This document shows, one piece after another, positions 23,460 through 43,059 of a stretch of 64,000 bases of DNA. The DNA lies in the NCBI GenBank assembly GCA_965243135.1, contig OZ251539.1:5024001-5088000 (forward strand). The letters are read 5' to 3'. Both the position numbers and the translations under genes were made by a program. This DNA comes from Alphaproteobacteria bacterium (GTDB lineage Bacteria; Pseudomonadota; Alphaproteobacteria; MPNO01; UBA830). Under the pieces are notes generated by a model that had not been told where the DNA came from, searched no databases, and saw only the letters and a program-made list of their open reading frames with translations. Positions within the stretch are counted from its first letter, which is position 1. Every line of letters begins with the position of its first letter.

Positions 23460-23727
23460 CTTGCTGCGGGCAGCTATCGTGCGCGCGGCGCGGTGCGGAA
23501 ATCGGCGGTCACACTGGACTTATGCAAGAGCATCCAGGCCACGCGACCGGGCTGGCGCTTCTTTCCGTCACCAGTCAGCGCGGCTCGGTCAAGCTTGTGA
23601 TCGCTCGGATAGCGTGCGCATCCTGGATCGCACGCCAGGCTTTCGCCGACGACGTGCCGTTTCCGCAAGGGCTTCGTCGCTACGAACGATTCCAGCGGCG
23701 TCGGTCCAAGCAGGGGTGGTTTCCCGT

Positions 23728-24213
23728 TCATTGGCTCAATGTCTTCCGCAAGTCCTTCATGAGCAAGAACAGGTGATGGGGAACCGTGGGACTCGGCTCG
23801 AATTCCAAGGCTTCGTACCATGCCCGCGCCTCTTCGTCCTTGGCATGGACGAGGAGCGACGCCGACGATGTCGGCGGCCGTGGCGGTTCTGAGCAGAGCA
23901 TCCTCGACGAGCGCCTTGCCCAAGCCGCGCCCTTGACAGGTTCGGTCGATCGCGAGACGAGCGAGGGGCAACACCGGAACCGCATGCTTGGCCAACCCTT
24001 TGCCGATAGGCGCAGAGGCATGCTCCACCGCTCCCGTCGCGAGGCTGTAGTAACCAAGCACTGCGGATTCCCGGCAGACGACATAAGTCCGGGCGCTTTC
24101 GGCCTTCCGACTCGCCAGCGCGAACCGCTTCAGAAAACGGTTGAGCGGTTCCTTCCCGCAATCATCTCGCGTTGCCTCGAGTTTCTCGACCGATCCCCAT
24201 GCTCCGATATCAC
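23728..24213 (-). pseudogene. GNAT acetyltransferase toxin (TacT/AtaT-like), at least two frameshifts
   Basis: The pieces DCGKEPLNRFLKRFA...LGYYSL...LARLAID..QGRGLG and LLVHAKDEEARAWYE...LFLL lie in different frames from each other and from the GTG start at 24213. Confidence 0.85.
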
Positions 24214-24485
24214 TCCAGTACGCTCTTCTCAGCGAGCAATCGGGCCAAGCGCGGCTTGCCGACGACCGGGCGGTCGAGAATATCCCGGAAGGTTCGCCAC
24301 CGCCGTTCGTCGAGGCGGAACATCCGACGGTCGATCAGGGCGTCCTCGGCAGCGTTGATTCCTGCCTCGAGCAGAAACTCCGCAACGCTCTTGCGCGACG
24401 ATGCCGCAGCTTGCTGCAGCAACGCCTTTGTGCCCGGGGTGGCCCGAACCTCTATGTGCTCCGACTTGTTTTCGGCGATGGCCAC
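24210..24485 (-). CDS. DUF1778 (TacA/AtaR-like) antitoxin
   Basis: KSEHIEVRAT..KALLQQAA...F...LD.P...PRLARLL; GGAGG RBS and GTG start; GTGA overlap with the toxin. Confidence 0.85.
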   Translation of the reverse strand: MAIAENKSEHIEVRATPGTKALLQQAAASSRKSVAEFLLEAGINAAEDALIDRRMFRLDERRWRTFRDILDRPVVGKPRLARLLAEKSVLE

Positions 24486-24636
24486 GAACGTTCCTCCAAT
24501 CGGCTCGGTCGGCATTCTACAATACGGATACTGTACGGACAATAGCTCGTCGACTCGATTTCGATTCACCTTCCTCCTTCCTCTAACCGTTCAGTGTTCG
24601 AATCTGAAACTGACGGCTCGGTACAAAATAATGACT

Positions 24637-25701
24637 TTATTGATCAGTAAGATGTTCTAGATGCAAAACTCTCTCCCTAATTTCAATATTCTCTTGGCGC
24701 AACTTTTCATTTTCTCGTACAAGCTCGTTAATTTTATCATACATTACCTTCGAGGTTGCGTCCATTTTTTCTGTGTTGGTGATTGTTTTTTCTGTAACTA
24801 ACTCTATTTTCTTCCTAATCTCTGGAACTAGGGAATTGTATATTCCAGTTACGTTGCTATAAAATCCTCGAAAAAGAACAAAAACAGCGACTAAAAATGC
24901 CGCTATAGCAACTATACTATATCCTTGAATCTTCTTGACAGTTTTCGCAAATTTCTCCGCCTTTTCCTCAGATTTTCTTGCGCTTTTTTCGGCACTACTT
25001 GCCACTAATGGAATAGAGCTTCGAATTGGGACTTCAGCCTTATTTTCGTCAAACTGTCTGGCGGCCTTATTTATATAGTCACGAATATCGTCCCAAAATT
25101 TCTTGTCTTCTTTATAAAGAGCTTTTTGGCCGAGTTTCCCGGAGCTAGACGTCTTTGTCAATTCTACCCAAATGAGGCCTTCGTTTCTCGGTATAGCGTA
25201 GTCTTCATCCGTTAAATTGTGGAGGGGAATGCATAATTTCCCCCAAAATCCCGGGTCAACTAATGGTCCAGTCCCCAATAAAATACCTCGGTGCACATGC
25301 CGGATTTGAAGATTGAACCTCATCGCAATGAAGTTAGGAAGACGAAAATCTAGATCACATTCTACAAAGACTATAGAATTAGCTTTGACTATGAGATCCT
25401 TATCTCCTAATACTCTTTCTAACTTACCTTTGTCATTATATTTGTAGGCGTGACGGCCGATACGCCCTTCGTAAGATGCCTTCTTTAATCGCGATTTTTC
25501 CCTACCACCACAATAGAATGGTGAAATTGCTCCCGTTTTGTCTACATACTTCATTATTTCATCAGCAGAAAGAAGTGCAGGTTCGACATCCGGAAAAGGA
25601 TCTACTTGACCAGAATTTATAAAATCATTCGCCCGTCGTTCTCCGTCACTCCTGTCCAGTATTTTTTGATCCCTACTATTCTTGGTATTCATATCAGACA
25701 T
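24637..25701 (-). CDS. dCTP deaminase/dUTPase-fold protein (degenerate active site) with C-terminal TM helix and coiled coil
   Basis: LLS..EI, ASYEGRIG, RLP..IA, VDPGFWG and HNLT motifs; hydrophobic YSIVAIAAFLVAVFVLF; heptad-rich C-terminus. Confidence 0.8.
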   Translation of the reverse strand: MSDMNTKNSRDQKILDRSDGERRANDFINSGQVDPFPDVEPALLSADEIMKYVDKTGAISPFYCGGREKSRLKKASYEGRIGRHAYKYNDKGKLERVLGDKDLIVKANSIVFVECDLDFRLPNFIAMRFNLQIRHVHRGILLGTGPLVDPGFWGKLCIPLHNLTDEDYAIPRNEGLIWVELTKTSSSGKLGQKALYKEDKKFWDDIRDYINKAARQFDENKAEVPIRSSIPLVASSAEKSARKSEEKAEKFAKTVKKIQGYSIVAIAAFLVAVFVLFRGFYSNVTGIYNSLVPEIRKKIELVTEKTITNTEKMDATSKVMYDKINELVRENEKLRQENIEIRERVLHLEHLTDQ

Positions 25702-26732
25702 ATCTCCGATTCGATGATTCTAGATCCAGAAAATCCGCACCAATCAACTTTTTTACCAATATCTAATTCAATTCGATCAATGAATTTTCTAAGACCGCTG
25801 TTCGGATTCTTAATGTCTTGCTCCACGCCAACATAATCGAGATGATTCAAAACCAGTCGATTCGGCGTGTTGACATCAAGAGCGCGTTTTACGATTTCGG
25901 AATTAAAATAGCCAACCCTGCGCAATTTTCCGGTAACGGTCGTATATTCGCGCAAATCACTTTGGCATTCGATTTTACTGGCGATTTCTTCCCATGTCGT
26001 TTCCTCGGGAAGAGGACCGGAATCCCCGGCAACCCGGATCGGATAAGAGCGAATGACCATTGTGATATCATCGACATCCATGGGGCTCAATCCGGCTTCC
26101 GACAGAGCGCCGGCGGCTGTAGTAGATCGAGAAGTTGCTTTAGGCCAGTAACCGCCTTCGAGCAAAGAAAGCCCGAAACCCTGCGTGCCTTCTATGACGA
26201 CGCGGTTCCCGCTCTCGATTCGCTCGCGAAGATAACTCGATGTATCTTTGACATAACTCTCCAATCGAGCGTGATCTTCTGCAAACGCCGAGCGCAAAGG
26301 GAAATTCGCCGCTTCGCGAGCGACGGAAGCCATGACCGCGGCGCCCACGCCCGATCCGGTGGAGCCGATCGTTTCCGTCAATCCTGCTGCCTTCTCCCAT
26401 TCCCGATGTTCCGCCCTGATGATATGGGCGTAAGCGCTGACATGAATGCGATCCCGCGGATAATCGAGCTTTTCGATCTCGGTCAGCAGCACATCGACAT
26501 CGATATAAGATCCCGCCGGCAGCACCACATCAACATTCCCGTCGACGCAAGCGGCCGGAAGCTGGCGCAAAACGTGCTTCGTTCCCGATCTATCGTAAGC
26601 CGTATGCCCGGAATTAGGCCCCCCGACGCGCACCGCGACAGCCGGGGCTCTTGAGCGCCTCACTATTTCCAAGGCTACCTTTCCCTTGCCCTCCGAGCCG
26701 AACTGACCCCCGATCACGATCGAAACAGGCAT
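25689..26732 (-). CDS. Short-form adenylosuccinate synthetase homologue, PurZ/PurZ0-like (347 aa)
   Basis: GGQFGSEGKG, GGPNSGHT, IGSTGSGVG, IEGTQGFGLS, PIRVAG.SGPL, TTVTGKLRRVG and NHLDY motifs. Confidence 0.85.
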   Translation of the reverse strand: MPVSIVIGGQFGSEGKGKVALEIVRRSRAPAVAVRVGGPNSGHTAYDRSGTKHVLRQLPAACVDGNVDVVLPAGSYIDVDVLLTEIEKLDYPRDRIHVSAYAHIIRAEHREWEKAAGLTETIGSTGSGVGAAVMASVAREAANFPLRSAFAEDHARLESYVKDTSSYLRERIESGNRVVIEGTQGFGLSLLEGGYWPKATSRSTTAAGALSEAGLSPMDVDDITMVIRSYPIRVAGDSGPLPEETTWEEIASKIECQSDLREYTTVTGKLRRVGYFNSEIVKRALDVNTPNRLVLNHLDYVGVEQDIKNPNSGLRKFIDRIELDIGKKVDWCGFSGSRIIESEICLI

Positions 26733-28636
26733 GGTTCCGTTCCCTTGTCCTGAATGCGCCCAGCATATCGTTCGATATCCGACATGTCGCCATCATTGAC
26801 GAAAATATCATGCGCAGATGACATCAGCTCGCCGACCCTTCTTTCGACTTCCGCGTTCGATGTCTTGTCGAAGCCGACATCGCCGTCGCGCAGGTCGAAT
26901 CTCATGCGCCGCGTCTTTTCCGGCGCGTCAATGTACACATGAAAAAAGCGAACCCCGAACCGCTCGACCATAAAAGCGTTGTCGTCCGGAAACCGCAAGC
27001 CGTCGACAACGATCTTCTCGGCGGCGCCTGCCAGCTTGATCGTCTGTTCGTTCAACCAACGCTGACGCCCGGAGGCATTGATTTCCTCGCCGAGCGTCTG
27101 CCGATTGGATCGGGTAAGCGGACGATTTTCTGCCTTCAGCATGTCGTCCAGAACCAGACTGAACCGCGTATATGAGAATCCCTTGCGCTCCAGTATGCGT
27201 GCAAGGGTGGTTTTGCCGGCGGCGATAGGTCCGCTGACGCCGACCACTACAGCCGTTGGTTCCCTTTCGAGCCGCGGAATGATGAGGGGCGGTTCTTCTT
27301 CGGTTCCAAGCGCCTCCGACATGCCGGCCATATGAAACGTGCCGACGAGAGCCGACGTGATCGCGTCGAGTTCGTCATGGGTTACCTTCTGTGTTTCGAA
27401 AGCGCCGGTTATTCCGAATTCCCGCAACCCCGCTTTCAGCCACTCCTCTCCGGCGCCTTTGCGCGGAATGCGCATGATGTCCTGGGCAGCGCCGGGATAG
27501 CTTTCGATCACCGGTATGCCGCGTTCGCGGAACGTCCGCGCGAGCCGCATGCCCCTCGCCGTCAACTTCTGCATGCTTTGAATGAGACAGGGATAGACGT
27601 TCACCCCGCGTCGCTTGAGCACGCGTTCGGATTGGCGCATGATTCCAAATTCCGCCCGCCCCGGATCGTCGTCCTCCACCGAAATGCGTCCCGCGGGAAG
27701 ACACAGGGGAGAATCGATCGAGACGATGTGCGGAAGGGCGCGACTCGTCTTTTCGATCAGGTCTTCGTCCGAGGACACCAAGGCCACGCAGGCCTCGCGT
27801 CCGTGAAGCAGACACCAGCCGCTGGGTCGTTCCTCTGCGCCTGTAAGATCGATGCCGACGACCCGCAGATCCGCGAATGCGTCATCGAACAGATCTTTGA
27901 AGTGCGAACGCTTCGCGGTGAACGCGGCGGGCGGCGGCGACGCCTTTGGCAAATTTCTCCAGCCCGAAGGGGCCGACCAATCGACAAAGCATGTATTTTC
28001 AACGAACATATCCGATTGTCCGCCTATGCGGGACACGGCCTCGTCGAAAATCGCCCCCATTGCCGCGATGTCGATTCGATTGTAGTGAATCAGTTTATGT
28101 AATGCGTTCCGATCTCCACGAACGTATTTGTGCCACAACAAAACCGCTTCAGCCCCGTCCATTTCCGGCAGTTCGTCCCGCAAATCGACGCCGATCTCCT
28201 TTTCGATAGCTTTCTGGCCTCCTGTCAGACCAACTCGCCTGCAAAGATACATGAGATCGACATGCGTTTCCGGAAATACGACTTCTGGGTATTCCTTCTT
28301 GATGAATTTTGCGTCGAAGCGGATCCCGTTAAAGGTCACCAGCGCCTTTGCGCGGCTCGCATCTTCATGTAACGGGGTAGGATCTTGTCCTTTGATGATC
28401 GTCTTGGCGGTTCCTTCAAAAGACCATCCGATGACGGTAATTTCGTCGTAGTAATGGCTGAGGCCTGTCGTCTCTATATCCAAGAATAGAACGAGTTCTG
28501 GGAATGAAGCGCAAACGCCGAGCTGACGACGCAACTTCCGTGGGATCGTCTTCTTCCCTTTTCCGGTTTTGCGCTCCGTTATCGGGCTGCGTGAATCTCG
28601 GGGGTCTGCAATTGCGGTGCCGCTCATCCTCTTCAT
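26714..28636 (-). CDS. Fusion: RNase_H_2/DEDD 3'-5' exonuclease + DUF429 RNase H-fold nuclease + P-loop nucleotide kinase
   Basis: FLDIETTG / FNGIRFD / YNRID; VGIDL / SIDSPL / IESYP / DELDAI; GPIAAGKTT / VVDGLR / IDAP. Confidence 0.82.
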   Translation of the reverse strand: MKRMSGTAIADPRDSRSPITERKTGKGKKTIPRKLRRQLGVCASFPELVLFLDIETTGLSHYYDEITVIGWSFEGTAKTIIKGQDPTPLHEDASRAKALVTFNGIRFDAKFIKKEYPEVVFPETHVDLMYLCRRVGLTGGQKAIEKEIGVDLRDELPEMDGAEAVLLWHKYVRGDRNALHKLIHYNRIDIAAMGAIFDEAVSRIGGQSDMFVENTCFVDWSAPSGWRNLPKASPPPAAFTAKRSHFKDLFDDAFADLRVVGIDLTGAEERPSGWCLLHGREACVALVSSDEDLIEKTSRALPHIVSIDSPLCLPAGRISVEDDDPGRAEFGIMRQSERVLKRRGVNVYPCLIQSMQKLTARGMRLARTFRERGIPVIESYPGAAQDIMRIPRKGAGEEWLKAGLREFGITGAFETQKVTHDELDAITSALVGTFHMAGMSEALGTEEEPPLIIPRLEREPTAVVVGVSGPIAAGKTTLARILERKGFSYTRFSLVLDDMLKAENRPLTRSNRQTLGEEINASGRQRWLNEQTIKLAGAAEKIVVDGLRFPDDNAFMVERFGVRFFHVYIDAPEKTRRMRFDLRDGDVGFDKTSNAEVERRVGELMSSAHDIFVNDGDMSDIERYAGRIQDKGTEPCLFRS

Positions 28637-28989
28637 GCCGTCACCTTCCGAGCGATCCGTGCGCCTGACGGCTTCCGTTCACCGATTTCCTCATTCGCAT
28701 GCCAAGTCTGCTGACAAATCCAGACTCGCCGGAAGATTCCGCCTTGTGCCGACGAACGTCATCAGGCCGCCGACTCGATGCTCCGCCTCGCCCCGGTTGT
28801 CCAGCATGTCATTATTAGCCTTCGCCGTTCCGATGCAAACCGTTTCCGGCCGTTTCCCCTCGGTATCTTGATCCGGGGAACGCCTCGGTCGCCCAGCCTC
28901 TTGCTTCCAGTCTACCAACTGTCGAGAATGACGGGTATGCTTGAACTTGTAAAACGGTATCCACAGCCAGCTTTGAGGAACGACCTACA

Positions 28990-31900
28990 TTGACGCAGCT
29001 TGCTCAGACATGGACGCAAGGAACATCTCCCCTGCCGACGTCGGGGAACCGGGACGCGCTGGAAGTTCACAGGGAACGTTGGCTGGAAGCGGGCCAGCGC
29101 CGCGACGATGCGTTCGCTCAGGACGCTTTGGAGGCGGCGGGCGAGCTGCTCGACGCTGTATTCGGCAACAGCCCGTATCTCAGCCATAGCCTGATCACCG
29201 ATCTTCCGTTCGCTCGGCTGTTGATCGAGAGCGGCCCGGACGCCGCCTATGAGGCGGCCCTTGGCGCGGTGCGCGACGGTGGCGATCCGGGAAACGAATC
29301 CGGGCGGGACTTGATGAAGCGCCTCCGGGTCGCCAAGCGTCAAGCCGCTCTTGCGATCGGTATGGCCGACATCGCTTCGGTCTGGCCGCTGGAACGGGTG
29401 ACCGGAGCGTTGGCGGACTTCGCGTCTGCGGCCCTGAGCGCGAGTTGCCGCCATCTGCTGCGCGAATTGCATAGAAGAGGCCGCTTCGCCCTGCCCGATC
29501 CCGACGACCCGGAAAAGGAGTCCGGCCTGATCGTCCTCGGCATGGGCAAGTTGGGCGCGCGCGAACTCAACTATTCCAGCGATATCGACCTGATCCTGCT
29601 CTTCGACCCGGAGACGACCCCGTATACGGGAGACGGCGATCTGCAGCAGACGTTCACGCGGCTTGCCCGCAACCTGGTGTCCCTGATGGACGAACGCACG
29701 GCGGACGGATACGTGTTCCGCACCGACCTCCGGCTCCGGCCCGATCCGGGGTCGACTGCGCCCGCGATCTCGACCCATGCGGCCGAAATGTATTACGAGA
29801 GCGCCGGGCAGAACTGGGAGCGCGCCGCCATGATCAAGGCGCGCCCGGTCGCCGGCGACGTCCCGCGGGGCGAGGCGTTTCTCGAAGTGCTTCAGCCGTT
29901 CATGTGGCGACGGCATCTCGATTTCGCCGCCATTCAGGACATCCAGTCGATCAAGCGGCAGATCAACGCGCACCGGGGCGGCGGCCAGATCGCCATCGAA
30001 GGACACAACGTCAAGCTGGGACGAGGCGGCATCCGCGAAATCGAGTTTTTCGCGCAGACGCAGCAACTGATCTGGGGCGGCCGCGACAGAGCGCTGCGAA
30101 CGAGAGGAACTCTGGAGGCGATCGACAAGCTCGTCGCCGCCGGGCACGTGGCGCGGTCGACCGCGAACGAGCTGGCGGCGGCCTACGACTTCCACCGCAG
30201 GCTCGAGCACAGGCTGCAGATGATCGACGACCGCCAGACCCACAGCCTGCCGGAGGACGAAACCGAACTGGCGGGCGTCGCGGCGTTTTCGGGGTTCGAC
30301 TCTACACAGGCCTTTCGCGACGCGGTTCTCGAACAGCTCAGGACCGTTGAGCGGCACTACGCGGCATTGTTCGAAGACGAGCCGGATCTGTCAGGGCCGG
30401 GCAATCTGGTTTTCACCGGCGGCGAGCACGATCCGGATACACTGACGACCCTCTCGGAAATGGGCTACGCCGAACCCGAACGGGTTTCGACGATGATACG
30501 AGCCTGGCATACCGGCCGGTATCGCGCCATGCAAAACACCCGTGCGCGGGAAATGCTGACCGAGCTCACTCCGGCGATCCTGGAGGCGTTCTCCGACTCG
30601 CCCGATCCCGATTCGGCGCTGCTGCGGCTCGACCGGCTCCTCTTGCGCTTGCCCGCCGGAATCCAGCTTTTTTCGCTTTTCACGGCCCATCCGGGGCTGT
30701 TCGAACTCGTCGCGGAGATCATGGGATCCGCTCCCCGTCTGGCCAACACTCTGAGCCGCCATCCGGCATTGCTCGACAGCGTATTGAGCCGCAATTTCAC
30801 CGACCTGCAAATTCCCGATGCCGAAGAACTGGGAGAAGAACTCGCGGACGCCGCTCGCCGAGGACTGATTCGGCTGTTTTACTCTCGGGAATACGGCATC
30901 GAGGAGATGAAGGCCGAGCTTTCGAACGCAGCCCGCGACGCCCGGGACTTCCAGGACTTCCTCGAAATCGAAAGGCGCTGGGCGAGCGACAGAATATTCC
31001 AGATCGGCGTGCACATGCTCAGGGGCCTCTTCTCGCCGACGGAAGCGGGGCGCCCGCTCTCGGATATCGCCGACGTCTGCCTCGGCGCTCTTCTGCCCGT
31101 CATCGAAAACGAGTTCGCGGCGACCTACGGACGCGTGCTAGGCGGCAAGGTCGCGCTCGTCGCCTTCGGCAAGCTGGGCAGCCGTGAAATGACGGTGAGT
31201 TCCGACCTGGACCTCATGTTCGTATACGATCACGATGCCGAAGCCACTGGCTCGGACGGAAAAAAATCCCTTTCTCCCGGCCAATATTACGCGCAGCTGT
31301 GCCGTCGCTTCATCGGCGCGGTTACCGCGCAGACGGCGGACGGCAAGCTGTACGAGGTGGACATGCGTCTCCGCCCGACCGGCAATGCCGGCCCCATCGC
31401 CACGTCGTTCGAAGCCTTCGAGAAATACCAGCGTTCGGAAGCATGGACCTGGGAACATCAGGCCCTGACCCGGGCGCGCGTGGTCTACGCCGAGAGCGAC
31501 CTCGAAGAGCGGATCGACGCCATGACCAGATCCGTTCTGGCGCTCCCCCGAAACCGCGAAGAGCTTGCGGGCGAGGTCGCCGGAATGCGCGAACGCATCC
31601 AGCGGGAACATGGCACCGACGACATCTGGTCGACCAAGCACGTTCGAGGCGGGCTTGTGGACGCCGAGTTCATCGCCCAATTCCTGCAGCTGACGCATGC
31701 GGCGGAGATTCCCGAAATTCTCGCAGGCGATCCCATCTCCGTGTTCGAAATCGCGCGGAAGCGCGAACTGATGGATGCCGAAACGGCGCGCAAGCTTACG
31801 GACGCCGTAACCCTCTGGCGCAATCTCCAGGGCATCCTGCGCCTGACGGTGGAAGGCGACTTCGTCGAAGAGAAGGCGCCGCATGGCCTGAAGAGGGTCG

Positions 31901-35133: not shown

Positions 35134-37650
35134 CTATATCATTCTGTACAACAGATTAGGATCGGCTTCTTCGCCACGGTATATCGCAAGAATTTCATCC
35201 GATATTTTTGCCATTGTCTTCATTTTACCTTTTTCCCATGTGCCGTTACTTTTGCAATGATCTAATCTCTTTATTATCTCTTGAGTGATTTCCGAATCGT
35301 CGTCCAGAGCAATATTTCCCATCGATTTCACTCGGGCCAACCCGCCAAGCAAGAGAAGAGCATACCGCATTTGTAGATGCGCTTCCATTTTCCATCTGTC
35401 CGGCATAATTGGATCATCCTTTATTTCCGATATCTTTTTCCACGCTATCTCCGCGAGCTTCTCGATCCAATCCGTGCGCCGGTTCAGAAGCTCTCCCGCT
35501 GTTCGTCGGCGAGCAAGAAGGTGGCTAAGGCACGCGAGCGCGTCGCACTCGAACGGTTTGTCCTCGTCGTCAAGAGCACCCCGGATCGCTCGCCGCATTC
35601 TTTCTTCATCAACAACTGCTCGCCCTAGACCATGCAGAATCGCCCTGTGTGCCGCTTCGTGCGTATATTCCACCGTGCGCCGAGCGCTCTCGATTCCCCA
35701 AACCGCATCAAGCAATAGATCCAGAAGCTCACCGGGACATTTCGCAAAAGTCCAGCTCGGAACGGTGTGCAACCGGTTTCGGGCCTTTATTCCAATATCT
35801 TGATCAAATCCCTGCCTGTACCACCTCAACAAAGTGCGCACCCCTACTATCATCACCTCATTCAGATCCCGTTCCGCTAGCACCCGCTGTTCGGCGGTCC
35901 ACCCTGACGATTCGTTCGCTGGCGGGAGATCACCATCCGTTCCCACAGCATACCGTTGGTTTACAGGAGGTTTCCCACGCGGCTTGCACAACCATTTGTA
36001 CAAGTAGTCCCGTTCTTGATCGGTAATCGCATCTTGCCCGCTCTTTCTGCAACGGTTTGCAGCATCCTTAAGCATCGTGGCATGAGCCGTTAATTCTCCA
36101 TTTTCCCACCACGCTTCTTCCGCAGCTCTATAGTGCACAAGGTGAGGAACAACGGACATGATATCTTTCGCCTTTGGACGGAACACTATTTTTTTCGGTT
36201 CTTCACTCCATGGCCTGTAGGTTCGCGAGGTGATCTCTATTCTCGCGTATCCGGTAGCGGGCTGTTGCACGGCGACGATCATAACATCGTGATCACGTTC
36301 GGTCGTCTCGATCTCGATCCGCTCACTGTACCTAGTCGCACCTTTTCGGAGCGGAACCATAAGTTCCGATTTCCCTTTCTCTAATTTGAGACCTTCACTC
36401 ACTTTCTTCGCTCTGTCAGCTGGTGTTCGGTAAGGTTCGCCCGCCCGTACAACTTCATTCTCACAAATAAGAGACAATTGTTTTTTCCGCCTTTTCTTTC
36501 CTTGAATGACCGTAAGGGAAAGCCCTTCCAAGTGATCAAACCACGGTGTTTCACCCTGTTCAATCGACCTTGCGGCAAGGAGCGCACCCCGGCTTCCCGC
36601 ATAGGGGGGCGCATTCAGCGGCTCTCGTCCATCTTTCCTCAAACTCTTCTCTAGCGCCTCCGTAACGCTCTTCCCAATGGGGCTCCATACAATTACCGTA
36701 TTCACATCCTCTAGGTTTTCGGCAGCATCTGTTGGCTCCTGCGCGTTATCCACGGTCCCCGGTGCAACCATTTTAATCCACTTTCCGCCTTCGTTGCGGA
36801 TCCACGCGTCCTCCGACCCGCCGCTTGCCCAGTGTTCGATCGCCCGGGTTTGTTGCTCCACCTTGTCCGCGTCGCGCCATGGAGTGATTTGCATCCGAAT
36901 CGTCTCGCATATCCAGTTCCACCCAGTCAGCCATGGGCGGATATCCTGGGGGCCTTTCCTTACTGGCAAGATGCGTCCTGTTTTCTCGTCTTTTTTCAGA
37001 CGAAATACATGCGTTCTGATCTCATTTCCGTAGCTAACGATGACGCCTACGCTCTCCTTTTCCATCAATGCCGGCATTCTTTCGAGCATTGCCAACGCTA
37101 CGCTCACCGAATCCCACACCAAATGAACTTTCGTCCCTCCAAGCGCTCTCCTGCCAAGCGCTTCTAACACCCTCGCTTGAACGACCTCGGTCATCTCTAA
37201 ATCGTCTGGAATGCAAAATCCCGCATTTCTCGTGATGCTTCGCGCTCCCTCCCTGCAACCGATAGCGCTTTGCACGCCCGCAAGGAGCACATCGCTAGCG
37301 GAAATTTTTTGCTCTTCGTCCTCTCCTGTGTCCTTTATCAGTAGATGATCCGACTCGTTGGCAACTTCTTCGCTCTCGACCTTCCTGATCTCGCGCCAAG
37401 CGTCCGCCGTTTCACGCCGTCTCGCCAGATTTCCTTTCTCTCCAAATTCTGATCCCCGTCCAAAAATGGTGGAGATCGCCCCTAAGCCGGCAACTAGCTT
37501 TGTCTTTCCGTCTTTCGCTCTGTCGGCCCGTACAGTGACACTTCGGGGACCCTCGTTACGTTCCCTACGTTGTGCGTCCATGGCGTCGCCTTCCGTCGCC
37601 ACGTAGTCCCATAACCCATTAAGGTCTATTCCCGCGATTTCGCGGCTCAT
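35134..37650 (-). CDS. Large protein with divergent Hsp70/actin-like N-terminal ATPase fold (838 aa)
   Basis: IAGIDLNG; AGFCIPDD...VQARVLEAL...VHLVWDSVSVALA parallels Hsp70 AVITVP...Q...LINEPTAAALA; ATGA-coupled to the upstream gene. Confidence 0.6.
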   Translation of the reverse strand: MSREIAGIDLNGLWDYVATEGDAMDAQRRERNEGPRSVTVRADRAKDGKTKLVAGLGAISTIFGRGSEFGEKGNLARRRETADAWREIRKVESEEVANESDHLLIKDTGEDEEQKISASDVLLAGVQSAIGCREGARSITRNAGFCIPDDLEMTEVVQARVLEALGRRALGGTKVHLVWDSVSVALAMLERMPALMEKESVGVIVSYGNEIRTHVFRLKKDEKTGRILPVRKGPQDIRPWLTGWNWICETIRMQITPWRDADKVEQQTRAIEHWASGGSEDAWIRNEGGKWIKMVAPGTVDNAQEPTDAAENLEDVNTVIVWSPIGKSVTEALEKSLRKDGREPLNAPPYAGSRGALLAARSIEQGETPWFDHLEGLSLTVIQGKKRRKKQLSLICENEVVRAGEPYRTPADRAKKVSEGLKLEKGKSELMVPLRKGATRYSERIEIETTERDHDVMIVAVQQPATGYARIEITSRTYRPWSEEPKKIVFRPKAKDIMSVVPHLVHYRAAEEAWWENGELTAHATMLKDAANRCRKSGQDAITDQERDYLYKWLCKPRGKPPVNQRYAVGTDGDLPPANESSGWTAEQRVLAERDLNEVMIVGVRTLLRWYRQGFDQDIGIKARNRLHTVPSWTFAKCPGELLDLLLDAVWGIESARRTVEYTHEAAHRAILHGLGRAVVDEERMRRAIRGALDDEDKPFECDALACLSHLLARRRTAGELLNRRTDWIEKLAEIAWKKISEIKDDPIMPDRWKMEAHLQMRYALLLLGGLARVKSMGNIALDDDSEITQEIIKRLDHCKSNGTWEKGKMKTMAKISDEILAIYRGEEADPNLLYRMI

Positions 37651-39197
37651 CGTTTCCCCGCCCGGGCTTGGAGGTGATCGACAGCCTTCTGGATCGAATT
37701 CAGAACGCACCCCAGACCGCTCTCAGGTCTCATTCGTTCCGCAAAGACGCGACATTCGTGCCGTTTCCCACCAGTGCTCATTCTCCGGGGATTTTCTTGC
37801 GGCATCCTTTCCTGCACAGTGAGAACCCCAATGTCATACGGTATCTCTTCACGTTCATTTCTGCTAGCGAGTTCCTCCATTCGATCAAGGTATCGAAGCT
37901 CTCCCTGCCCCGTTCCCAAAACATAGAATGCTAACTTTGCTTCCTTTTTGGACGCATTTTCAATCATACCCAGCGTGATCGCACAACAAGAGCCAGATGG
38001 CGCTTCGCTGTTCGGCTCTACCCCGCTGGCTTGTATCTCCATCCACCATCCCGTGTCGGGCTGGATAAGCAAACAGAACGGTTTCTGTTCCAACGCAAGC
38101 CAGCGTCCTTTTTCCTGTCCTGTCCGAAGAACCACTGGCGGCTTCACCACGGGCGTCCAACTTTCAAAGTTCATCACCGCGACGCTCACGGCTAGCAACC
38201 CCAACTCGTTCCATGCCTCCGCTTGCCAGCTCCAAAGCTCATCTTCGAGATCCATTCTCTGAATCAGTTGTTCCCTAGCTGTCCAGATCCGTCGGTAGTC
38301 AGGGTTCATCCTCAGAACTTGATTGGGTTCCGCTCCCGCCTCAAGCTTTCTGACCCCCGCTTCCCTCAACGCCGCCGCAACGTTTGTGCACTCTCTCCCC
38401 CACTGAATGAGCTGTGCATCTATGCTCCATCCTTGCGAGAGCCGCTGGACTTCCCGCGCGGTCATCTCCGCGAAATCTCGCACCACTCGGTTTTCGCGGG
38501 TGTTGTGGTTCGTTATCCGCATTTCCGTGAGAATGCCCCGCTTGGCGCGCTCCTCTATTGTGCGGCCGGGTTTCCCTGCTAGCCATTTGATGCTTTTTCG
38601 GCTGGTTCGTTCCACGCGCTCTGGAGCTACGATCCGTTCCTCCCGCGCAAGCACTGTTTTCGGATTTCGCCCGATTCGGCGAAGCACCAGCGGCAGTTCC
38701 CGTGCATGCTGTTTCAGTACTTCCGTCCTTGGCTCATAATCACCAGAGAGTTCGCGTTCAAACGCCGCCTTAGCCTGCGCCCATTCTCTACCCGCTCCCC
38801 AAGCCCTCGTTTCCTCAATCTGGCGAATCCGCGCCGCCACGTCGATATGTGCTCCTCTTTTACAACCTGCATCGTTGAAGTCGTCTTCGCTCCACCTGAT
38901 CGTGTCAACGGAGCCGTTCGCGCTCACATGCTGCACAGGGGGCGTTCTTGGCCGGGGAAGCGGAATCCGCCAAGCCGTTCGTTCTTCGTCATCACTCGTC
39001 GCAACCCATTCGGGTTGGAGCGCTCGGAATCCGTTCAGCCGAGGTTTTGCGTCTGCAGCCGTAACCGCGAATACTCCAGTAAGCGCACTGTTTTCTGACC
39101 CGTCGGCCTCTGTTTCCGGCCCCGCGTTCGCCGGCCTACCCGCGAGTGCACGTGTGAGGTTTCGCAGTCCCCTCGTAACCTGAATATCTTGGGGCAT
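37647..39197 (-). CDS. DUF2357 (McrC N-terminal-like) protein
   Basis: NHNTRENRVVRDF and PNQVLRMNPDYRRIW motifs; directly follows the McrB-like gene. Confidence 0.72.
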   Translation of the reverse strand: MPQDIQVTRGLRNLTRALAGRPANAGPETEADGSENSALTGVFAVTAADAKPRLNGFRALQPEWVATSDDEERTAWRIPLPRPRTPPVQHVSANGSVDTIRWSEDDFNDAGCKRGAHIDVAARIRQIEETRAWGAGREWAQAKAAFERELSGDYEPRTEVLKQHARELPLVLRRIGRNPKTVLAREERIVAPERVERTSRKSIKWLAGKPGRTIEERAKRGILTEMRITNHNTRENRVVRDFAEMTAREVQRLSQGWSIDAQLIQWGRECTNVAAALREAGVRKLEAGAEPNQVLRMNPDYRRIWTAREQLIQRMDLEDELWSWQAEAWNELGLLAVSVAVMNFESWTPVVKPPVVLRTGQEKGRWLALEQKPFCLLIQPDTGWWMEIQASGVEPNSEAPSGSCCAITLGMIENASKKEAKLAFYVLGTGQGELRYLDRMEELASRNEREEIPYDIGVLTVQERMPQENPRRMSTGGKRHECRVFAERMRPESGLGCVLNSIQKAVDHLQARAGKR

Positions 39198-41099
39198 CTA
39201 TCCGATCTGCCGTCCAGTCCAGGCGAACGTACCCACGCTGTGCATCGTGTTCGTCGCGTTCGAAACCGCGTTTGCCAGATCCTGATCATCGAGATTCTGA
39301 TCGCAGATCTTGCTCAGCCGGTCCAATGCGTCCGCCGCTCCTTGATTGGCACCGTCGATTCCGGTGAGCTTCGGTAGCACCCTCATCTCGACTTGGTCCA
39401 CAAGGGCATTCCTCCAGTCCTTTGAAGGATAGCGCTCAATGTATCGCGCCATCGCCTGTCCCATCCGGTGACCGAAGGGCCGACCAACTCTTTCCATCAC
39501 TTCTTCGTTAATCAAAGTGATTGTCTGCCGAGCTTCACTTTCCATTTCCCGCCCTTCGCACCATCTCCGCCAATTCTCATCTTTGAGGGCTTTCTCTCCT
39601 CCCTCTCGTCCGTTCTTATCCAAGCCAGTCCCCATAGCTGTAAATTGGATCTCCTGCGGCCTGGGAAATCGGATAACGTTTGAGCGGTCAATCACCTTGT
39701 CCGAAAGCGTCTGCGTGCTTTCGTCCTCATTCATCGTGCCCACCCACAGGATTCGCTCCGAGGGATAGATTCTTTCCGCTTCTTCACCTTCTCCATGCGG
39801 CACGTCGAGCTCGATCATCGTCTCTGGACGTGGTCCGCCTTCTTTAAATTCTTCTCGCGCCTGCCTCAGCTCCAAGCGACTCAAGAAGTCTGAAAAATAG
39901 TACTCGGTACGAGCTAAGTTCATTTCGTCTAGCAATACCATCGCCATACGGCCGTCTTCTTGCTCGTTCTTCCGTCCTTGGTCGAAGTTCCACAAGAGGC
40001 GCGCAAGCTCTGTAGCCTGATACCTTCCATGCATGTAATCATACGAACCAACCAAGTCGATCGGGCTATCCCACCGCGGTTGCACAGGCACAACCAATAA
40101 ATACATTCCCATCGCCTCGGCATACGCCCGCGGTAGCTGCGTCTTCCCCGTGCCGCTAATTCCAGCAAGAACGGTAAGCGGCGACACCTCCGCTATTTTG
40201 AGCGAGGTATGCAACCTCCACACCATTCTTTGGTTGAACTTGAGGCCCCATTGACGAATGAGGCTTATCGCCTCGTCTAGCGCTTCGTTTTCGTCTTGAA
40301 TTGGTTTGTCTGATCTATAGCCTCCTACACAACCCGGTTGTCTGGTAAGGTTTCCTAGGCGGGTTTTACCTTGTTTATTTTCACCTAATTTTCCGCCCAT
40401 CTCTCCTTTCATCTTCTCCACCTCTCTTTCGTAACTTTCTTTTCTGACTTCCGCAGACCGGGCTCTATCTTCCGCTTCATTGGCTCTTTTTTCCGCAGAT
40501 TCTGCTACTTCCTTTTTCCGTTCCAATTCCGATTCAATAGAAGCCAATTCTTTGCTTTTTTCTGCTATTTCTTTTGCAAATTTATTGATTTCATCTTCTA
40601 GAATCTTCTTTTCTTCCTGAGCCGATTTCTTCCATTCGATAAACTGTTCTTTTTTGGGATCGAATTCTTCCACATACTTTTGAAGTCTATTCTTCTTTTC
40701 TTCCATCTCGGCCATCTCCTTTTCCATTCGGTCCCGCTGTTCCTGAACCATTTCACCCTTCCTTGCGATCTCCCGAATCTTCAATTCTTCTTCTTTCGCA
40801 AATTGGTCGAGCGCTTTGCGCTGTTCGCCCAGACCAGAATATTCTTCCTCGATCTCTTTTATTTCCCGGGTAAGTTCTTCAATTTTTTTTGCCAAATTTT
40901 CGCTTGTCTCGGCCTTTCCTCGAACTTCCTCGTACTTCTTTTCGGCCTCGTTAATGCGTCTCGCCGCCTGATCGTATCGATCCTCCATTGACGAACCATT
41001 TCCACTTCGTCTGTGGAAGGTGAGCCATGCTACGGTCCAGCCTCCTGCCAATGCGGCCCCTACGACACTCGCCACAGTCCACGGGATTTCCCAGATCAT
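39198..41099 (-). CDS. McrB-like AAA+ GTPase (NxD type) with N-terminal TM helix and long coiled coil
   Basis: LAGISGTGKT, VPVQPRWDSP.DLVG, LLDEMNLARTEYYFSDFLS, GTMNEDEST and DKVIDRS motifs. Confidence 0.88.
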   Translation of the reverse strand: MIWEIPWTVASVVGAALAGGWTVAWLTFHRRSGNGSSMEDRYDQAARRINEAEKKYEEVRGKAETSENLAKKIEELTREIKEIEEEYSGLGEQRKALDQFAKEEELKIREIARKGEMVQEQRDRMEKEMAEMEEKKNRLQKYVEEFDPKKEQFIEWKKSAQEEKKILEDEINKFAKEIAEKSKELASIESELERKKEVAESAEKRANEAEDRARSAEVRKESYEREVEKMKGEMGGKLGENKQGKTRLGNLTRQPGCVGGYRSDKPIQDENEALDEAISLIRQWGLKFNQRMVWRLHTSLKIAEVSPLTVLAGISGTGKTQLPRAYAEAMGMYLLVVPVQPRWDSPIDLVGSYDYMHGRYQATELARLLWNFDQGRKNEQEDGRMAMVLLDEMNLARTEYYFSDFLSRLELRQAREEFKEGGPRPETMIELDVPHGEGEEAERIYPSERILWVGTMNEDESTQTLSDKVIDRSNVIRFPRPQEIQFTAMGTGLDKNGREGGEKALKDENWRRWCEGREMESEARQTITLINEEVMERVGRPFGHRMGQAMARYIERYPSKDWRNALVDQVEMRVLPKLTGIDGANQGAADALDRLSKICDQNLDDQDLANAVSNATNTMHSVGTFAWTGRQIG

Positions 41100-42241
41100 T
41101 GCTCCGTTCCCCCGCTAGGCACACTCGTTCGCTTGTCTTCCAAACGCTTGAGCGTTATCTCTAATTTTGTACTCGCCTCTGAAAGTTCTTCCATTATCTT
41201 CATGTATTCGCGTTCCAGACGTTCGACATCGTCCTTCGCAGCCCGGCCGATTCCTTGTAGACGTTTCAATTTCGACTCGATCTCCCGCCTTTCACTTTCG
41301 AGGCGCGCAACCTCTTCGCGAACCGCTCGTAACTCTCCTTTGGCATCGTCCAACTCACGCTCAGTTATGTCGAGATCCGCCCTTGCACGCTGGTTTTGTT
41401 TCACAAGACGTTCCCGTTTCAATTCCAGACGTTTGACGTCACCTGCTTTAGTTTGCGCTTCCTGTTCTGCGTTCTGTATTCGAGTTCGCAATTCTTTCTC
41501 GCGCACCGACAGATCGTTGACGCGCGCATTCCGCGTGTTCTCCTCTGTCTTGAGGTCTTCCACCGACCTCAAGAGGCGTTCTTTCCGTTCGTCTAGCACC
41601 TTCGCATCGTCAATCGTCTTGCGCGCTGTTTCGGCCCGTATTCTCAGGTCTTCTTCCTCTTGCCGCAGCGACGGTAAAACTTCTTCAAATCTCCGTTTTT
41701 CCGAATTGAGATCTTCAATTTGTCCTCTAACACGTTTTTGCTCCAATTTTAGACGTATGACGTCATCTGCTCTGGTTTGCGCTTCCTGTTCTGCGTTCTG
41801 TACTTGAGTTTGTATTTCTCGTTCGCGCGCTATTAGGTCGTTGATACGCGCATTCCGCGTGTTCTCCTCTGTCTTGAGGTCTTCCACCGACCTCAAGAGG
41901 CGTTCTTTCCGTTCGTCTAGCACCTTCGCATCGTCAATCGTCTTGAGCGCTGTTTCGGCCCGTATTCTCAGGTCTTCTTCCTCTTGCCGCAGCAATGGTA
42001 AAACTTCTTCAAGTTTTCCCCTATCTGATTTCAGCCCTTCTACCTGGGTCAGCAGCTCGCTGCGCTGAACCTCAAGCGCATCAATCGCAGCACGCTGCCG
42101 GGCAGCGTCGATACTCTCGCTTACGACAATGGTTGCGGGGATGCCCACGAGCAGCAATCCCAATGCGGCACCCAATCCAACCCTGACTCGGACTTTCTTC
42201 ATGTCCTGGCTGACGTGCTTGAATATGTCTGCGTCACTCAT
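41096..42241 (-). CDS. Membrane-anchored coiled-coil protein with internal 108-aa duplication
   Basis: TM segment VGLGAALGLLLVGIPATIVV followed by continuous heptads; GGAGG RBS; overlaps both neighbours. Confidence 0.8.
   Translation of the reverse strand: MSDADIFKHVSQDMKKVRVRVGLGAALGLLLVGIPATIVVSESIDAARQRAAIDALEVQRSELLTQVEGLKSDRGKLEEVLPLLRQEEEDLRIRAETALKTIDDAKVLDERKERLLRSVEDLKTEENTRNARINDLIAREREIQTQVQNAEQEAQTRADDVIRLKLEQKRVRGQIEDLNSEKRRFEEVLPSLRQEEEDLRIRAETARKTIDDAKVLDERKERLLRSVEDLKTEENTRNARVNDLSVREKELRTRIQNAEQEAQTKAGDVKRLELKRERLVKQNQRARADLDITERELDDAKGELRAVREEVARLESERREIESKLKRLQGIGRAAKDDVERLEREYMKIMEELSEASTKLEITLKRLEDKRTSVPSGGTEQ
41410..42012. repeat. Direct duplication with 324-bp period inside the coiled-coil gene
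   Basis: GGTAAAACTTCTTCAA at 41673 and 41997; near-identical cores at about 41523-41620 and 41847-41944. Confidence 0.9.
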
Positions 42242-43037: not shown

Positions 43038-43059
43038 TTGATTGCTGAATTCAAGCGCG

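Follow-up and report, generated by a model that had tools for sequence, protein, structure and literature searches.

The window analysed in this work is a stretch of 64,000 nucleotides (nt) from an Alphaproteobacteria bacterium (assembly GCA_965243135.1, contig OZ251539.1, positions 5,024,001 to 5,088,000 of the forward strand), and it contains at 24637..25701 on its minus strand a gene for a protein resembling dCTP deaminase (Dcd), which is referred to below as the Dcd-like protein. The question raised by this locus is what a protein with this fold can be doing when the motifs characteristic of Dcd are replaced in it, a transmembrane (TM) helix and a coiled coil have been added to it, and its gene is the last in an operon whose preceding gene encodes a relative of the phage enzyme PurZ. 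A preliminary description of the gene had proposed that its product is a nucleotide receptor rather than an enzyme and the likely effector of the operon. The best explanation of the results presented here is that the protein forms a homotrimer embedded in the membrane, derives from the Dcd/dUTPase fold, and serves as the output module of a cassette found in defence islands. More specifically, we consider it to be either a nucleotide-gated membrane effector or a membrane-bound reader of a deoxynucleotide made by the PurZ-like enzyme, and to this reading we assign a probability of about 0.45. That the protein is a receptor rather than an enzyme, and that it is an effector, is what we infer from the evidence taken together, and its ligand, its gating, the damage to the membrane and the anti-phage role of the cassette are spoken of below in the same conditional sense. 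The parts of the Dcd-like protein to which the text refers are as follows.

24637..25701, minus strand: Dcd-like membrane protein, 354 amino acids (aa) (call of the open reading frame (ORF), large family, Dcd/dUTPase fold)
25102..25596, minus strand: predicted cytoplasmic head with the Dcd/dUTPase fold, residues 36-200 (strands of the AlphaFold2 (AF2) model, Foldseek, interface in the trimer model)
25153..25320, minus strand: invariant motif block, residues 128-183 (RFNLQIRHVHRG...DPGFWGKLCIPLHNLT...LIWVELTK), standing in place of the RSS and catalytic-Glu motifs of Dcd (alignments)
25009..25026, minus strand: IRSSIP segment, residues 226-231, conserved and packing on the HVHRG and NLT motifs of the neighbouring chain in the trimer model
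24919..25017, minus strand: charged helical stalk, residues 229-261 (part of the AF2 helix 229-308; heptad-spaced contacts between chains in the trimer model)
24862..24918, minus strand: single TM helix, residues 262-280 (SIVAIAAFLVAVFVLFRGF) (Kyte-Doolittle value 2.43; same place in homologues)
24643..24759, minus strand: predicted extracytoplasmic heptad-repeat (coiled-coil) tail, residues 315-353 (AF2 helix; three-helix contacts to residue 352 in the trimer model)

The ORF encodes 354 aa, and the form of the protein in a public protein collection (P0001) starts from Met4 and is 351 aa long. The AF2 model of this protein, which was built on 49 homologues, has a mean predicted local distance difference test score (pLDDT) of 79.3 and a predicted template modelling score (pTM) of 0.63, and its strands place a beta barrel at residues 62-183. 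In a Foldseek search of this model against the PDB, ranks 1-35 were all occupied, with a probability of 1.00, by dCTP deaminases, bifunctional DCD-DUT enzymes or Dcd-like archaeal dUTPases, the best match being 4dhk (E 4.4e-8), and the TM-scores by target were in the range of 0.56-0.74 for the single-domain entries. A library of viral structures returned the same families, and the Dcd fold named in the preliminary description is thus borne out by the model. The models based on sequence respond more weakly. The score of the protein on the dCTP deaminase family TIGR02274 is 26.1 bits, which is below the cut-off of 92.8, and a Pfam search gave nothing at E<=0.1 except for coiled-coil noise, the family PF22769 (DCD, dCTP deaminase-like; gathering threshold 27 bits) being among those which did not respond. 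Some relatives of the protein score higher on PF22769, viz. those from the loci L045 (41.6 bits) and L060 (33.8 bits), while a paralogue from Mesorhizobium scores 25.8 bits, and this domain is carried by 54-62% of the members of the nearest ESM Atlas clusters. Among solved structures, those nearest in sequence are the PDB entries 8y1w and 9ln0, with E of about 1e-3. When the profile of the family was compared by hhalign with the single sequence of E. coli Dcd the result was not significant (E 0.032, probability 1.6%), and due to this the map of motifs given below rests on a MAFFT alignment with intermediate sequences together with the match of folds. The features described are far beyond chance: the motif block shows little or no variation among 49 sequences whose overall identity is 43-70%.

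The family to which the Dcd-like protein belongs is large. A word-indexed search found 1584 proteins at E<=0.001, and an exhaustive search of clusters at 50% identity found 1329 at E<=0.001, 866 at E<=1e-10 and 441 at E<=1e-30. In the databases the members of this family are named either "hypothetical protein" or "deoxycytidine triphosphate deaminase". Because the family is large, is spread over many phyla and is annotated in this manner, establishing its function would lead to the re-annotation of many genomes.

The changes in the active site can be followed by aligning the protein through intermediate relatives (MAFFT) with E. coli Dcd (from NC_000913) as the reference. The RSS and Arg residues of the Dcd motif RSSxxR have a role in nucleotide binding. 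In this alignment R110, S111, S112 and R115 of E. coli Dcd correspond to Q132, I133, R134 and H137, D128 is retained as D149, and E138 is replaced by P159; E138 of the E. coli enzyme and its counterpart E145 in M. jannaschii are the residues mutated in the PDB entries whose titles include E138A/E138D and E145A/E145Q. The preliminary description had read the RSS..R motif as QIRHVHR and had considered the catalytic Glu to be replaced within GKLCIP, and both readings agree with this map (Q132-I-R-H-V-H137-R, and Pro159 opposite to E138). The landmarks of the fold which it listed are likewise present, as LLSADEI, ASY, LP, DPGFWG and N162. As for its further claim, that a conserved Gln reads LIWVE, the sequence LIWVE stands opposite to RVAQL of the yeast dUTPase 3p48 only in a weak alignment (E 1.3), and E. 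coli Dcd also has no Gln at this place (LIGALS). Further, D149 is invariant and position 152 is either F or Y, which means that the Asp of dUTPase motif III and the aromatic residue following it are kept, the counterpart of Asp149 being the water-activating residue of dUTPases. The motif II of dUTPases, (R/K)S(S/G), is replaced.

The residues which have taken the place of the lost motifs are themselves strongly conserved. The stretch RFNLQIRHVHRGLLLGTGPLVDPGyWGKLCIPLHNLT..Y...GLIW.EFTK is invariant or nearly so in the 49 sequences noted above, whose alignment with the Dcd-like protein contains 48 invariant columns, including R128, N130, H135, V136, H137, R138, G139, D149, P150, G151, G154, K155, C157, I158, P159, L160, H161, N162, L163, T164, Y168, W178, E180, K183 and S229. 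When the set was widened to 76 sequences, obtained by translation of related loci, the pattern persisted as RFNL.I.hVhRGlLLGTGPLvDPGf.G.l.IPlHNLT...Y...lIW.EFTK, and Pro159 and His161 are kept in at least 95% of these sequences, whereas Lys155 and Cys157 are not. Since the position of the catalytic Glu is occupied by Pro in at least 95% of these 76 relatives, the alignments support the view that the protein is not a deaminase of the Dcd type; and because the replacement residues are invariant or nearly invariant across a large family, they support the view that the pocket has been rebuilt rather than has decayed. A metal site in the pocket formed by His/His/Cys/His was also considered as a candidate. 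It was weakened by the wider set, in which Cys157 and Lys155, invariant in the 49 close sequences, are not conserved.

A model of the homotrimer, covering residues 36-354, was made in three runs along with 3 controls. Its ipSAE interface score is 0.78 (median of the three runs) compared to 0.00 for the best of the 3 controls, but the score of the head may come from the likeness of this part to solved Dcd trimers, in which case it indicates resemblance and not binding. In the calibration of the ipSAE mark, the mark was reached by 20 of the 30 proteins solved as pairs and by 1 of the 23 solved as single chains. At least 77% of the contacts agree between the runs, and the pLDDT of the partner is at least 71. 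The interface of the head in this model consists of residues 39-48, 102-112, 123-151 and 157-187, and residues 130-139 of one chain lie against 157, 159 and 161 of the next. The replacement motifs would thus meet at the interface between subunits, which together with their invariance fits the remodelled base pocket proposed earlier. The segment IRSSIP, in which I226, S228, S229 and I230 are conserved at 90-100% in the 49 sequences, forms part of the same arrangement: residues 224-233 are modelled against residues 134-138 and 164-166 of the neighbour, with contacts of 226 with 137 and 138, of 228 with 164, and of 227 and 229 with 165. By analogy, this segment is possibly the counterpart of the C-terminal lid of Dcd and dUTPases. 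From residue 230 to residue 352 the contacts in the trimer model are spaced in heptads, and they describe a three-helix bundle running through the stalk, the membrane and the tail.

The part of the protein following the barrel consists, in the AF2 model, of a short helix at 207-214, the IRSSIP segment, a continuous helix at 229-308, in which the charged helical linker noticed in the preliminary description is found as the stalk, and another helix at 315-353. The occurrence of the membrane segment and the tail was surveyed in 237 homologues of at least 300 aa by looking for a hydrophobic 19-mer after residue 190. Such a segment is present in 233 of the 237, just one of them in 230 of these 233, and these results support the inclusion of the Dcd-like protein among membrane-anchored proteins, with one TM helix as had been described. 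Lys and Arg are more abundant before the 19-mer than after it in 210 of the 233 homologues and the reverse is seen in 6, and because of this bias the head should be cytoplasmic and the coiled coil outside (N-in/C-out). The a and d positions of the heptads in the tail, by direct reading, are I324/L327, N331/L334, N338/I341 and V345/L348. For 230 tails, the mean a/d score is 6.2 of 8, compared to 4.2 for shuffled tails, which agrees with the coiled coil noted earlier, and the sequence of the tail is variable among the homologues.

The N-in/C-out topology and the outside tail, whose median length in the homologues is 67 aa, are also compatible with the view that the protein acts as a sensor or an anchor. 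According to this explanation, the trimer would be located in the inner membrane with its coiled coil in the periplasm, detect events at the envelope such as the entry of phage DNA, and recruit or activate the nucleases and the PurZ-like enzyme of the cassette, the toxic output then being either the action of the nucleases or the modified nucleotide itself. The variable sequence of the tail would be expected of a surface under arms-race pressure, and the fusion protein encoded by the first gene of the operon has two nuclease-type domains with intact motifs which could be the effector. However, it is the cytoplasmic pocket and not the outside tail that is most conserved in the Dcd-like protein, and variants of the cassette lacking the fusion gene also exist (-PD-X, 11/157 loci, described below). 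We regard this explanation as quite improbable.

The reading of the protein as a nucleotide-gated effector or reader is connected with the genes that precede it. The three minus-strand ORFs of the cassette overlap head to tail (28636-26714, 640 aa; 26732-25689, 347 aa; 25701-24637, 354 aa), and the operon is, to judge from its gene boundaries, translationally coupled with the Dcd-like gene as its last gene. The following features accompany the Dcd-like gene.

25689..26732, minus strand: PurZ/PurZ0-like homologue of adenylosuccinate synthetase, 347 aa (PF00709), overlapping both neighbouring genes
26714..28636, minus strand: three-domain fusion protein, 640 aa (PF13482, E 2.5e-30; AAA_18; weak DUF429 match)
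27992-28504, minus strand: DEDDy 3'-5' exonuclease domain of the fusion protein (PF13482)
27302-27874, minus strand: DUF429-like domain of the fusion protein, with RNase H fold (weak DUF429 match)
26762-27259, minus strand: P-loop domain of the fusion protein resembling nucleoside monophosphate (NMP) kinases (AAA_18)
28811..28839, minus strand: promoter-like site upstream of the operon (9 of 12 matches in a consensus scan, weak evidence)

The 347-aa protein is a synthetase of the short archaeal/PurZ type (PF00709, E 2.3e-50) which falls below the cut-offs of the two more specific models, scoring 243 bits on the PurZ model NF038379 (cut-off 300) and 245 bits on the archaeal PurA model NF003295 (cut-off 368). 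Its best match in the PDB is 7vf6 (E 4.9e-51, 177 bits), and further matches are the PurA of Pyrococcus (160 bits), the PurZ of phiVC8 (115 bits) and that of S-2L (107 bits). The entry 7vf6 is PurZ0 of the Gordonia phage Archimedes, as stated in PMC12884076. In the P-loop of the cassette enzyme, GGQFGSEGKGK, a Ser is present at the position of the catalytic Asp13 of PurA, and this Ser13 is at least 90% conserved in 36 relatives; both Ser13 and Lys268, hallmarks of PurZ, were read from alignments with 7vf6 and 2d7u. The change from Asp to Ser is found in 147/147 phage PurZ sequences according to PMC12884076, and PMC8342488 lists S23 as specific for PurZ and contacting the substrate. Further, the sequence TGKLRRVG of the cassette enzyme is closer to TNKIRRVG of PurZ0 than to TGRRRRVG of Pyrococcus PurA, and this is the place where PMC8342488 locates the Arg of PurA that reads the 2'-OH of the ribose. 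The remaining catalytic motifs are all intact, and the substrate of the enzyme is predicted to be of the dGMP type. Its context is cellular, and no partner of the DpoZ, DatZ or MazZ kind was found beside the gene.

The presence of a PurZ-family enzyme next to a protein with a dUTPase-type fold also brings in an explanation in which the Dcd-like protein is a membrane-tethered pyrophosphatase of deoxynucleoside triphosphates (dNTPs), similar to DutZ, converting dGTP to dGMP and dATP to dAMP. Such an enzyme would feed the PurZ-like synthetase and drain dATP, and the effect of the whole cassette would in that case be to rewrite or deplete the pool of deoxynucleotides during infection. DutZ is present in 98/98 PurZ0 phage genomes according to PMC12884076, and it is to PurZ0 that the synthetase of the cassette is closest. 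D149 and the aromatic residue in DPGF/Y are kept in the Dcd-like protein, its nearest relatives in the PDB by sequence are dUTPases lacking the Glu, and the cassette is rich in enzymes of deoxynucleotide metabolism (the NMP kinase domain, and a deoxynucleoside kinase (dNK) gene in 46/157 loci). Defences acting by nucleotide depletion are known. However, the phosphate-binding RSS motif that is kept in Dcd as well as in the Dcd-like dUTPases is replaced in this protein, and there is no evident need in a pyrophosphatase for the TM helix and the outside coiled coil, yet these are kept in 233/237 homologues. The exchange of the protein for an AAA+ protein, which is described below, is likewise unlike a substrate-supplying step. 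In our assessment this explanation, the chief alternative to the reading preferred here, is unlikely, though it deserves serious weight.

The fusion protein, for which the mean pLDDT of the AF2 model is 87.6, combines domains with intact motifs. In its exonuclease domain the motifs FLDiETTGLS, TFNG..FD and YN..D are conserved in 66 sequences of the protein, and the fold resembles the exonuclease domains of family B polymerases (Foldseek). The DUF429-like domain, in which GIDLtGSe, SIDSPL and HDELDA are conserved in the same 66 sequences, is better conserved than any other part of the cassette (identity of 56-80% between phyla) and matches the PADLOC candidate PDC-S44 weakly; in the Foldseek search it was not placed among the top matches. 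The kinase part matches the kinase part of the PADLOC model for dCTPase, and its fold is nearest to 3lw7 (an AMP-bound protein related to adenylate kinase; TM-score by target 0.76-0.81), dephospho-CoA kinases and UMP-CMP kinase. A phmmer search of the 640-aa sequence against the PDB gave no match. PADLOC contains no model for either the Dcd-like or the PurZ-like protein.

The extent to which these genes travel together was determined from two samples. In the first, consisting of 77 genomic loci from species-representative genomes encoding a relative of the Dcd-like protein (neighbours identified by tblastn), the numbers of loci with a PurZ-like gene, a DUF429 domain, a kinase and an exonuclease next to it are 74, 70, 69 and 68, respectively, several of the misses being due to cut contigs. 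The gap between the PurZ-like and the Dcd-like gene is 60 nt or less, or the genes overlap, in 60 of the 71 same-strand pairs, and that between the fusion gene and the PurZ-like gene is 60 nt or less in 61 of 67. In the second and independent sample, which started from the PurZ-like gene and contains 80 metagenomic loci, the Dcd-like gene lies downstream of the PurZ-like gene in 52 of the 58 loci with at least 1100 nt of room, and the DUF429 domain lies upstream in 38 of the 46 loci with at least 2000 nt. The hosts, as given in the titles of the records, are mostly Alphaproteobacteria but also include Gamma-, Beta- and Zetaproteobacteria, Acidobacteriota, Cyanobacteria and NC10, and furthermore Nitrospirota, Desulfobacterota, Verrucomicrobia, Bacteroidetes, Peptococcaceae, Binatia and Dehalococcoidia.

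The arrangement of the genes was compared in a pool of 157 loci, many of them cut. If E denotes the fusion gene, P the PurZ-like gene, D the Dcd-like gene, K the dNK-family kinase and X a 250-aa protein, then the order EPD is seen in 48 loci, EPDK in 34, EPDX in 30, PDX (without the fusion gene) in 11, P alone in 10, PD in 7, PDK in 3 and EP-K in 3, with rarer architectures making up the remainder. Of the 157 loci, 46 have the dNK gene (PF01712) after the Dcd-like gene. In four loci the Dcd-like gene is absent and the dNK gene comes after the PurZ-like gene. In L114 and L122 the dNK is followed by a protein of 734-836 aa, which has a C-terminal AAA domain and an unassigned N-terminal part, and in L127 and L130 the locus ends or changes after the dNK. 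The positions of these variant cassettes within their loci are:

L122, 5268-8408: cassette without the Dcd-like gene
L114, 1183-4079: cassette without the Dcd-like gene
L127, 5228-5836: cassette without the Dcd-like gene
L130, 2093-2677: cassette without the Dcd-like gene

These gene orders suggest that the last module can be either the Dcd-like membrane protein or the AAA+ protein, the dNK co-occurring with both. That the AAA+ protein takes the place of the Dcd-like gene in a few loci fits an exchangeable output module.

Other variations concern accessory and duplicated genes. The 250-aa protein (MQNRY.GD.GD..K ... FLDPDNG ... YHHLNR ... RRGS.RHFW), which is not present in the window, stands beside the cassette in 27 of the 77 genomic loci (examples being L045 4055-4807, L060 8002-8769, L029 8070-8831 and L065 6216-6965, among others), and there are loci in which the PurZ-like and Dcd-like genes occur together with it while the exonuclease-DUF429-kinase gene is missing. 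The 250-aa protein has no match in Pfam, NCBIfam or PADLOC, a profile search of the PDB gave nothing meaningful and a comparison by hhalign with an RlmJ-like ORF gave nothing; the sole lead is an RlmJ-like fold from a structural match in the ESM Atlas (TM-score 0.62). In some genomes two Dcd-like membrane paralogues are found in or beside one cassette. They stand in tandem in two Mesorhizobium species (L008 5687-6751 and 7001-8089, and likewise L010), and a longer paralogue of 448-488 aa lies on the opposite strand in L029 (10591-11940) and L041 (3854-5320). The genome containing the window also encodes a second, shorter Dcd-like protein of 224 aa with a C-terminal TM helix (G000:C1:4184303-4184977; locus L078, 1498-2172, plus strand), which is related to the Dcd-like family (hhalign probability 97.6%). 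This protein scores 106 bits on TIGR02274, above the cut-off, yet is without the catalytic Glu (RLIIGLTN) and is probably mis-annotated as a dCTP deaminase. Its gene stands alone beside a DruA-like fragment, an IS66 transposase and an MT-A70 gene.

The surroundings of the cassette were examined by scanning flanking ORFs of at least 150 aa with PADLOC. Of the 20 genomic loci scanned, 13 have one or more known defence genes within about 4.5 kb (106 ORFs, E<=1e-8), type I restriction-modification (R-M) genes being found in 7, and the others including RosmerTA, components of MADS, type IIG and type II R-M, Argonaute-associated genes and PDC-S12. The corresponding number for the metagenomic loci is 10 of 21 (82 ORFs, E<=1e-12, flanks of about 3 kb), with prokaryotic Argonaute in 3 along with BrxA/BrxB (BREX), DRT2, RosmerTA, RhuM/PDC-S05 and R-M. 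In all, defence genes flank 23 of the 41 sampled loci and the other 18 have no PADLOC neighbour. As a rough estimate, given a few R-M loci per genome, a random gene would lie this close to one in about 1% of cases. The Dcd-like gene is the last gene of a conserved operon that occurs in defence islands, which lends support to its description as the likely effector of the operon. A pattern scan of 2.9 million viral contigs gave no relative of the Dcd-like protein and neither did 50,697 phage records, while plasmids gave 3 distant matches, all on conjugative plasmids of Sinorhizobium. Among the 60 nearest genomes the gene is found in 0 (genus 0/4, further family 0/21, order 0/35), and the best genomic match for all three cassette genes is a metagenome-assembled genome of Bryobacterales. 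A possible case of transposon cargo is seen in Nostoc linckia (L049, 11119-14153), where a type V-K CRISPR-associated transposon has its TniQ, TnsC and TnsB at a distance of about 3 kb from the cassette and a type I methyltransferase is found on the other side of the cassette.

In the window itself the cassette is part of an insertion, as seen from its composition and from an empty site in a congener, and the features of this island are:

23460..28990, strand not assigned: inserted island of about 5.5 kb with lowered G+C content, holding the TacA/GNAT pair and the cassette (G+C content; empty site in the congener)
24210..24569, minus strand: TacA-type antitoxin gene (PF08681, E 2.9e-20), in the same insertion as the cassette
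23474..24061, minus strand: GNAT-like ORF, possibly a TacT-type toxin (weak GNAT matches, E 1.5e-3 to 0.024, below the cut-offs), in the same insertion

The G+C content is 0.41-0.60 between 24 and 29 kb of the window compared to 0.63-0.70 in both flanks. In the congener G003 the gene for the dioxygenase alpha subunit and glnE are 586 nt apart, whereas in the window the distance between them is 6.0 kb, and because of this empty site the region of about 23460-28990 is regarded as an insertion. The same sequence is present in the assembly contigs of the runs X1, X4 and X5, in which no joint across the island was found. A second stretch of low G+C content (0.46-0.58) with strongly negative GC skew is present at 35134-43139 on the minus strand of the window, and it contains five co-directional large ORFs, one of which (39198-41099) matches the PADLOC candidate PDC-M26A (E 7.6e-37) while 42234-43139 matches PDC-S37/Hhe weakly; it may be another defence island.

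The contents of such islands can also be read differently, viz. that the cassette has no role in immunity and is a mobile module for salvage or modification of deoxynucleotides (e.g. of 2-aminoadenine nucleotides), or an addiction cargo carried in variable islands. Islands of this kind gather many types of cargo, the one described here also holds the TacA/GNAT pair, and, as noted, 18 of the 41 sampled loci are without a PADLOC neighbour. However, the flanks inspected were only about 3-4.5 kb each, and within them prokaryotic Argonaute, BREX, DRT2, RosmerTA, MADS and many R-M genes were met in 23 of the 41 loci; the distribution of the cassette is patchy over more than 10 phyla with 0/60 occurrences in close relatives; and neither a phage copy nor a partner of the DpoZ, DatZ or MazZ kind was found. 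We consider a non-immune role to be very unlikely.

If the Dcd-like protein is, as we prefer to read it, the effector or reader of the cassette, then its action can be envisaged as follows. The nuclease domains of the fusion protein would release deoxynucleoside monophosphates from DNA, among them deoxyguanylate, or these could alternatively be supplied by the dNK acting on deoxynucleosides. The PurZ-like enzyme would convert dGMP to N6-succino-2-amino-dAMP, from which the PurB and kinases of the host, along with the NMP kinase of the cassette, could produce the di- and triphosphates of 2-aminoadenine. One such product would be bound by the trimeric head, whose ancestors bind dNTPs, and the IRSSIP segment may then close over the pocket in the manner of the C-terminal arm of Dcd and dUTPases. 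This movement would pass down the continuous three-helix bundle of stalk, TM helix and tail to the membrane, which would be disturbed, and the infected cell would be stopped. A bolder form of this proposal, that bacteria took the phage Z-base enzyme PurZ into their own immunity, where a succino- or 2-aminoadenine deoxynucleotide made from exonuclease-freed deoxyguanylate acts as an alarm and is read by a dead membrane dCTP-deaminase trimer that collapses the membrane, is possible but rather doubtful. If true, both the class of immune messenger and the fold of the receptor would be new, and in some lineages the receptor would be swapped for an AAA+ protein.

Several observations weigh against the interpretation which we prefer. 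Asp149 is kept without exception, the lining of the pocket includes several basic residues and histidines, and 8y1w and 9ln0, which are active dUTPases, likewise lack the Glu; due to these facts some catalysis by the Dcd-like protein is possible. The pairing of PurZ0 with DutZ in phages, as reported in PMC12884076, would provide a purely metabolic reason for the pairing of the PurZ-like and Dcd-like proteins. A single TM helix in each chain offers little from which a pore could be formed, and the replacement by an AAA+ protein rests on 4 Dcd-less loci at most. Further, the counts of defence neighbours stand without matched control loci, and the cassette fits no PADLOC system model, the matches being those of individual domains of the fusion protein.

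It remains to compare the cassette with known systems. With Dcd (E. coli 1xs1/1xs4/2v9x) and the DCD-DUT enzymes (M. jannaschii 1ogh, M. tuberculosis 2qlp) the Dcd-like protein shares the beta-barrel fold, the homotrimer (predicted in its case), the DPGF/W.G motif with its Asp, and ASY, LP and N162. However, it differs from them in having Pro159 in place of the catalytic Glu and QIRHVHR in place of RSSxxR, and in the addition of about 150 residues that form the stalk, the TM helix and the coiled coil. In the archaeal Dcd-like trimeric dUTPases (Thermococcus pacificus 8y1w; P45 9ln0) the Glu of the deaminases is missing as well (the sequence reads LTLMLFN), but these proteins keep the RSS motif (klRSSlaReg), which the Dcd-like protein does not, and they are soluble housekeeping enzymes of 155 aa, the membrane part being confined to the Dcd-like protein.

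Cap15 and other TM effectors of CBASS (cyclic oligonucleotide-based antiphage signalling systems), PycTM and Cam1 are ligand-gated membrane effectors of signalling defence systems. The gene layout seen in CBASS, Pycsar and type III CRISPR systems, viz. a TM gene beside a nucleotide-making enzyme in defence islands, is also found here, and as in those effectors a soluble ligand domain would be joined to a TM segment in an oligomeric protein. However, there is no relation to them in sequence or fold, the Dcd-like protein having a Dcd trimer head, a single TM helix in each chain and a coiled coil outside, and the putative signal is a linear base-modified deoxynucleotide and not a cyclic one. To our knowledge, enzymes of the PurZ type have so far been studied only as the phage route to 2-aminoadenine DNA. 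In the literature searched (full text without supplements) no description of the three-gene cassette or of a membrane-bound Dcd-like protein was found, and the cassette is apparently undescribed.

The phage Z clusters, consisting of PurZ0 with DutZ (PMC12884076) or of PurZ with DatZ and MazZ (PMC8342488), resemble the cassette in that a PurZ-family synthetase of the Ser type is paired with a protein of the dUTPase superfamily. According to the former source, DutZ, an enzyme which has the dUTPase fold and makes dAMP and dGMP, is encoded in each of the 98 PurZ0 phage genomes, and the PurB and kinases of the host complete the synthesis of the Z nucleotide. In contrast to these clusters, the cassette is cellular and not viral, is without DpoZ, DatZ or MazZ, and has a Dut-fold partner that is membrane-anchored and lacks the RSS motif.

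The closest parallel in logic is Kongming, in which, as described in 10.1101/2024.12.20.629578, dITP is produced by an adenosine deaminase together with a nucleotide kinase. Its reader is KomB, a HAM1 pyrophosphatase that has its catalytic Asp replaced by His and acts as an immune sensor. As portrayed there, KomB is similar to the Dcd-like protein in having the fold of a housekeeping nucleotide hydrolase, in the replacement of a catalytic residue, and in standing beside a base-modifying enzyme; and it is a reader of a base-modified, non-cyclic deoxynucleotide, a role which for the Dcd-like protein is only proposed. On the same account of Kongming, the two systems differ in that HAM1 is not a Dcd fold and the modifying enzyme is an adenosine deaminase rather than PurZ-like, that KomB works with a SIR2 NADase whereas the Dcd-like protein itself carries a TM helix, and that Kongming borrows a phage kinase whereas the PurZ-like cassette encodes its own. 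None of the domains of KomA (adenosine deaminase), KomB (HAM1) and KomC (SIR2) is present in the three cassette proteins, which resemble Kongming in logic alone. Should the cassette prove to be a defence system, Kongming would be the only earlier known case of immune signalling or pool manipulation by means of a base-modified linear deoxynucleotide, and the cassette would contain the first host-side enzyme of the PurZ type and the first Dcd/dUTPase fold serving as a membrane-bound output module. The question which it raises is which nucleotide fits the rebuilt pocket. Its parts, viz. a host-side relative of PurZ and a Dcd-fold output module, would then be new, whereas its logic, a nucleotide-making enzyme combined with a membrane output module, is that of systems already known.

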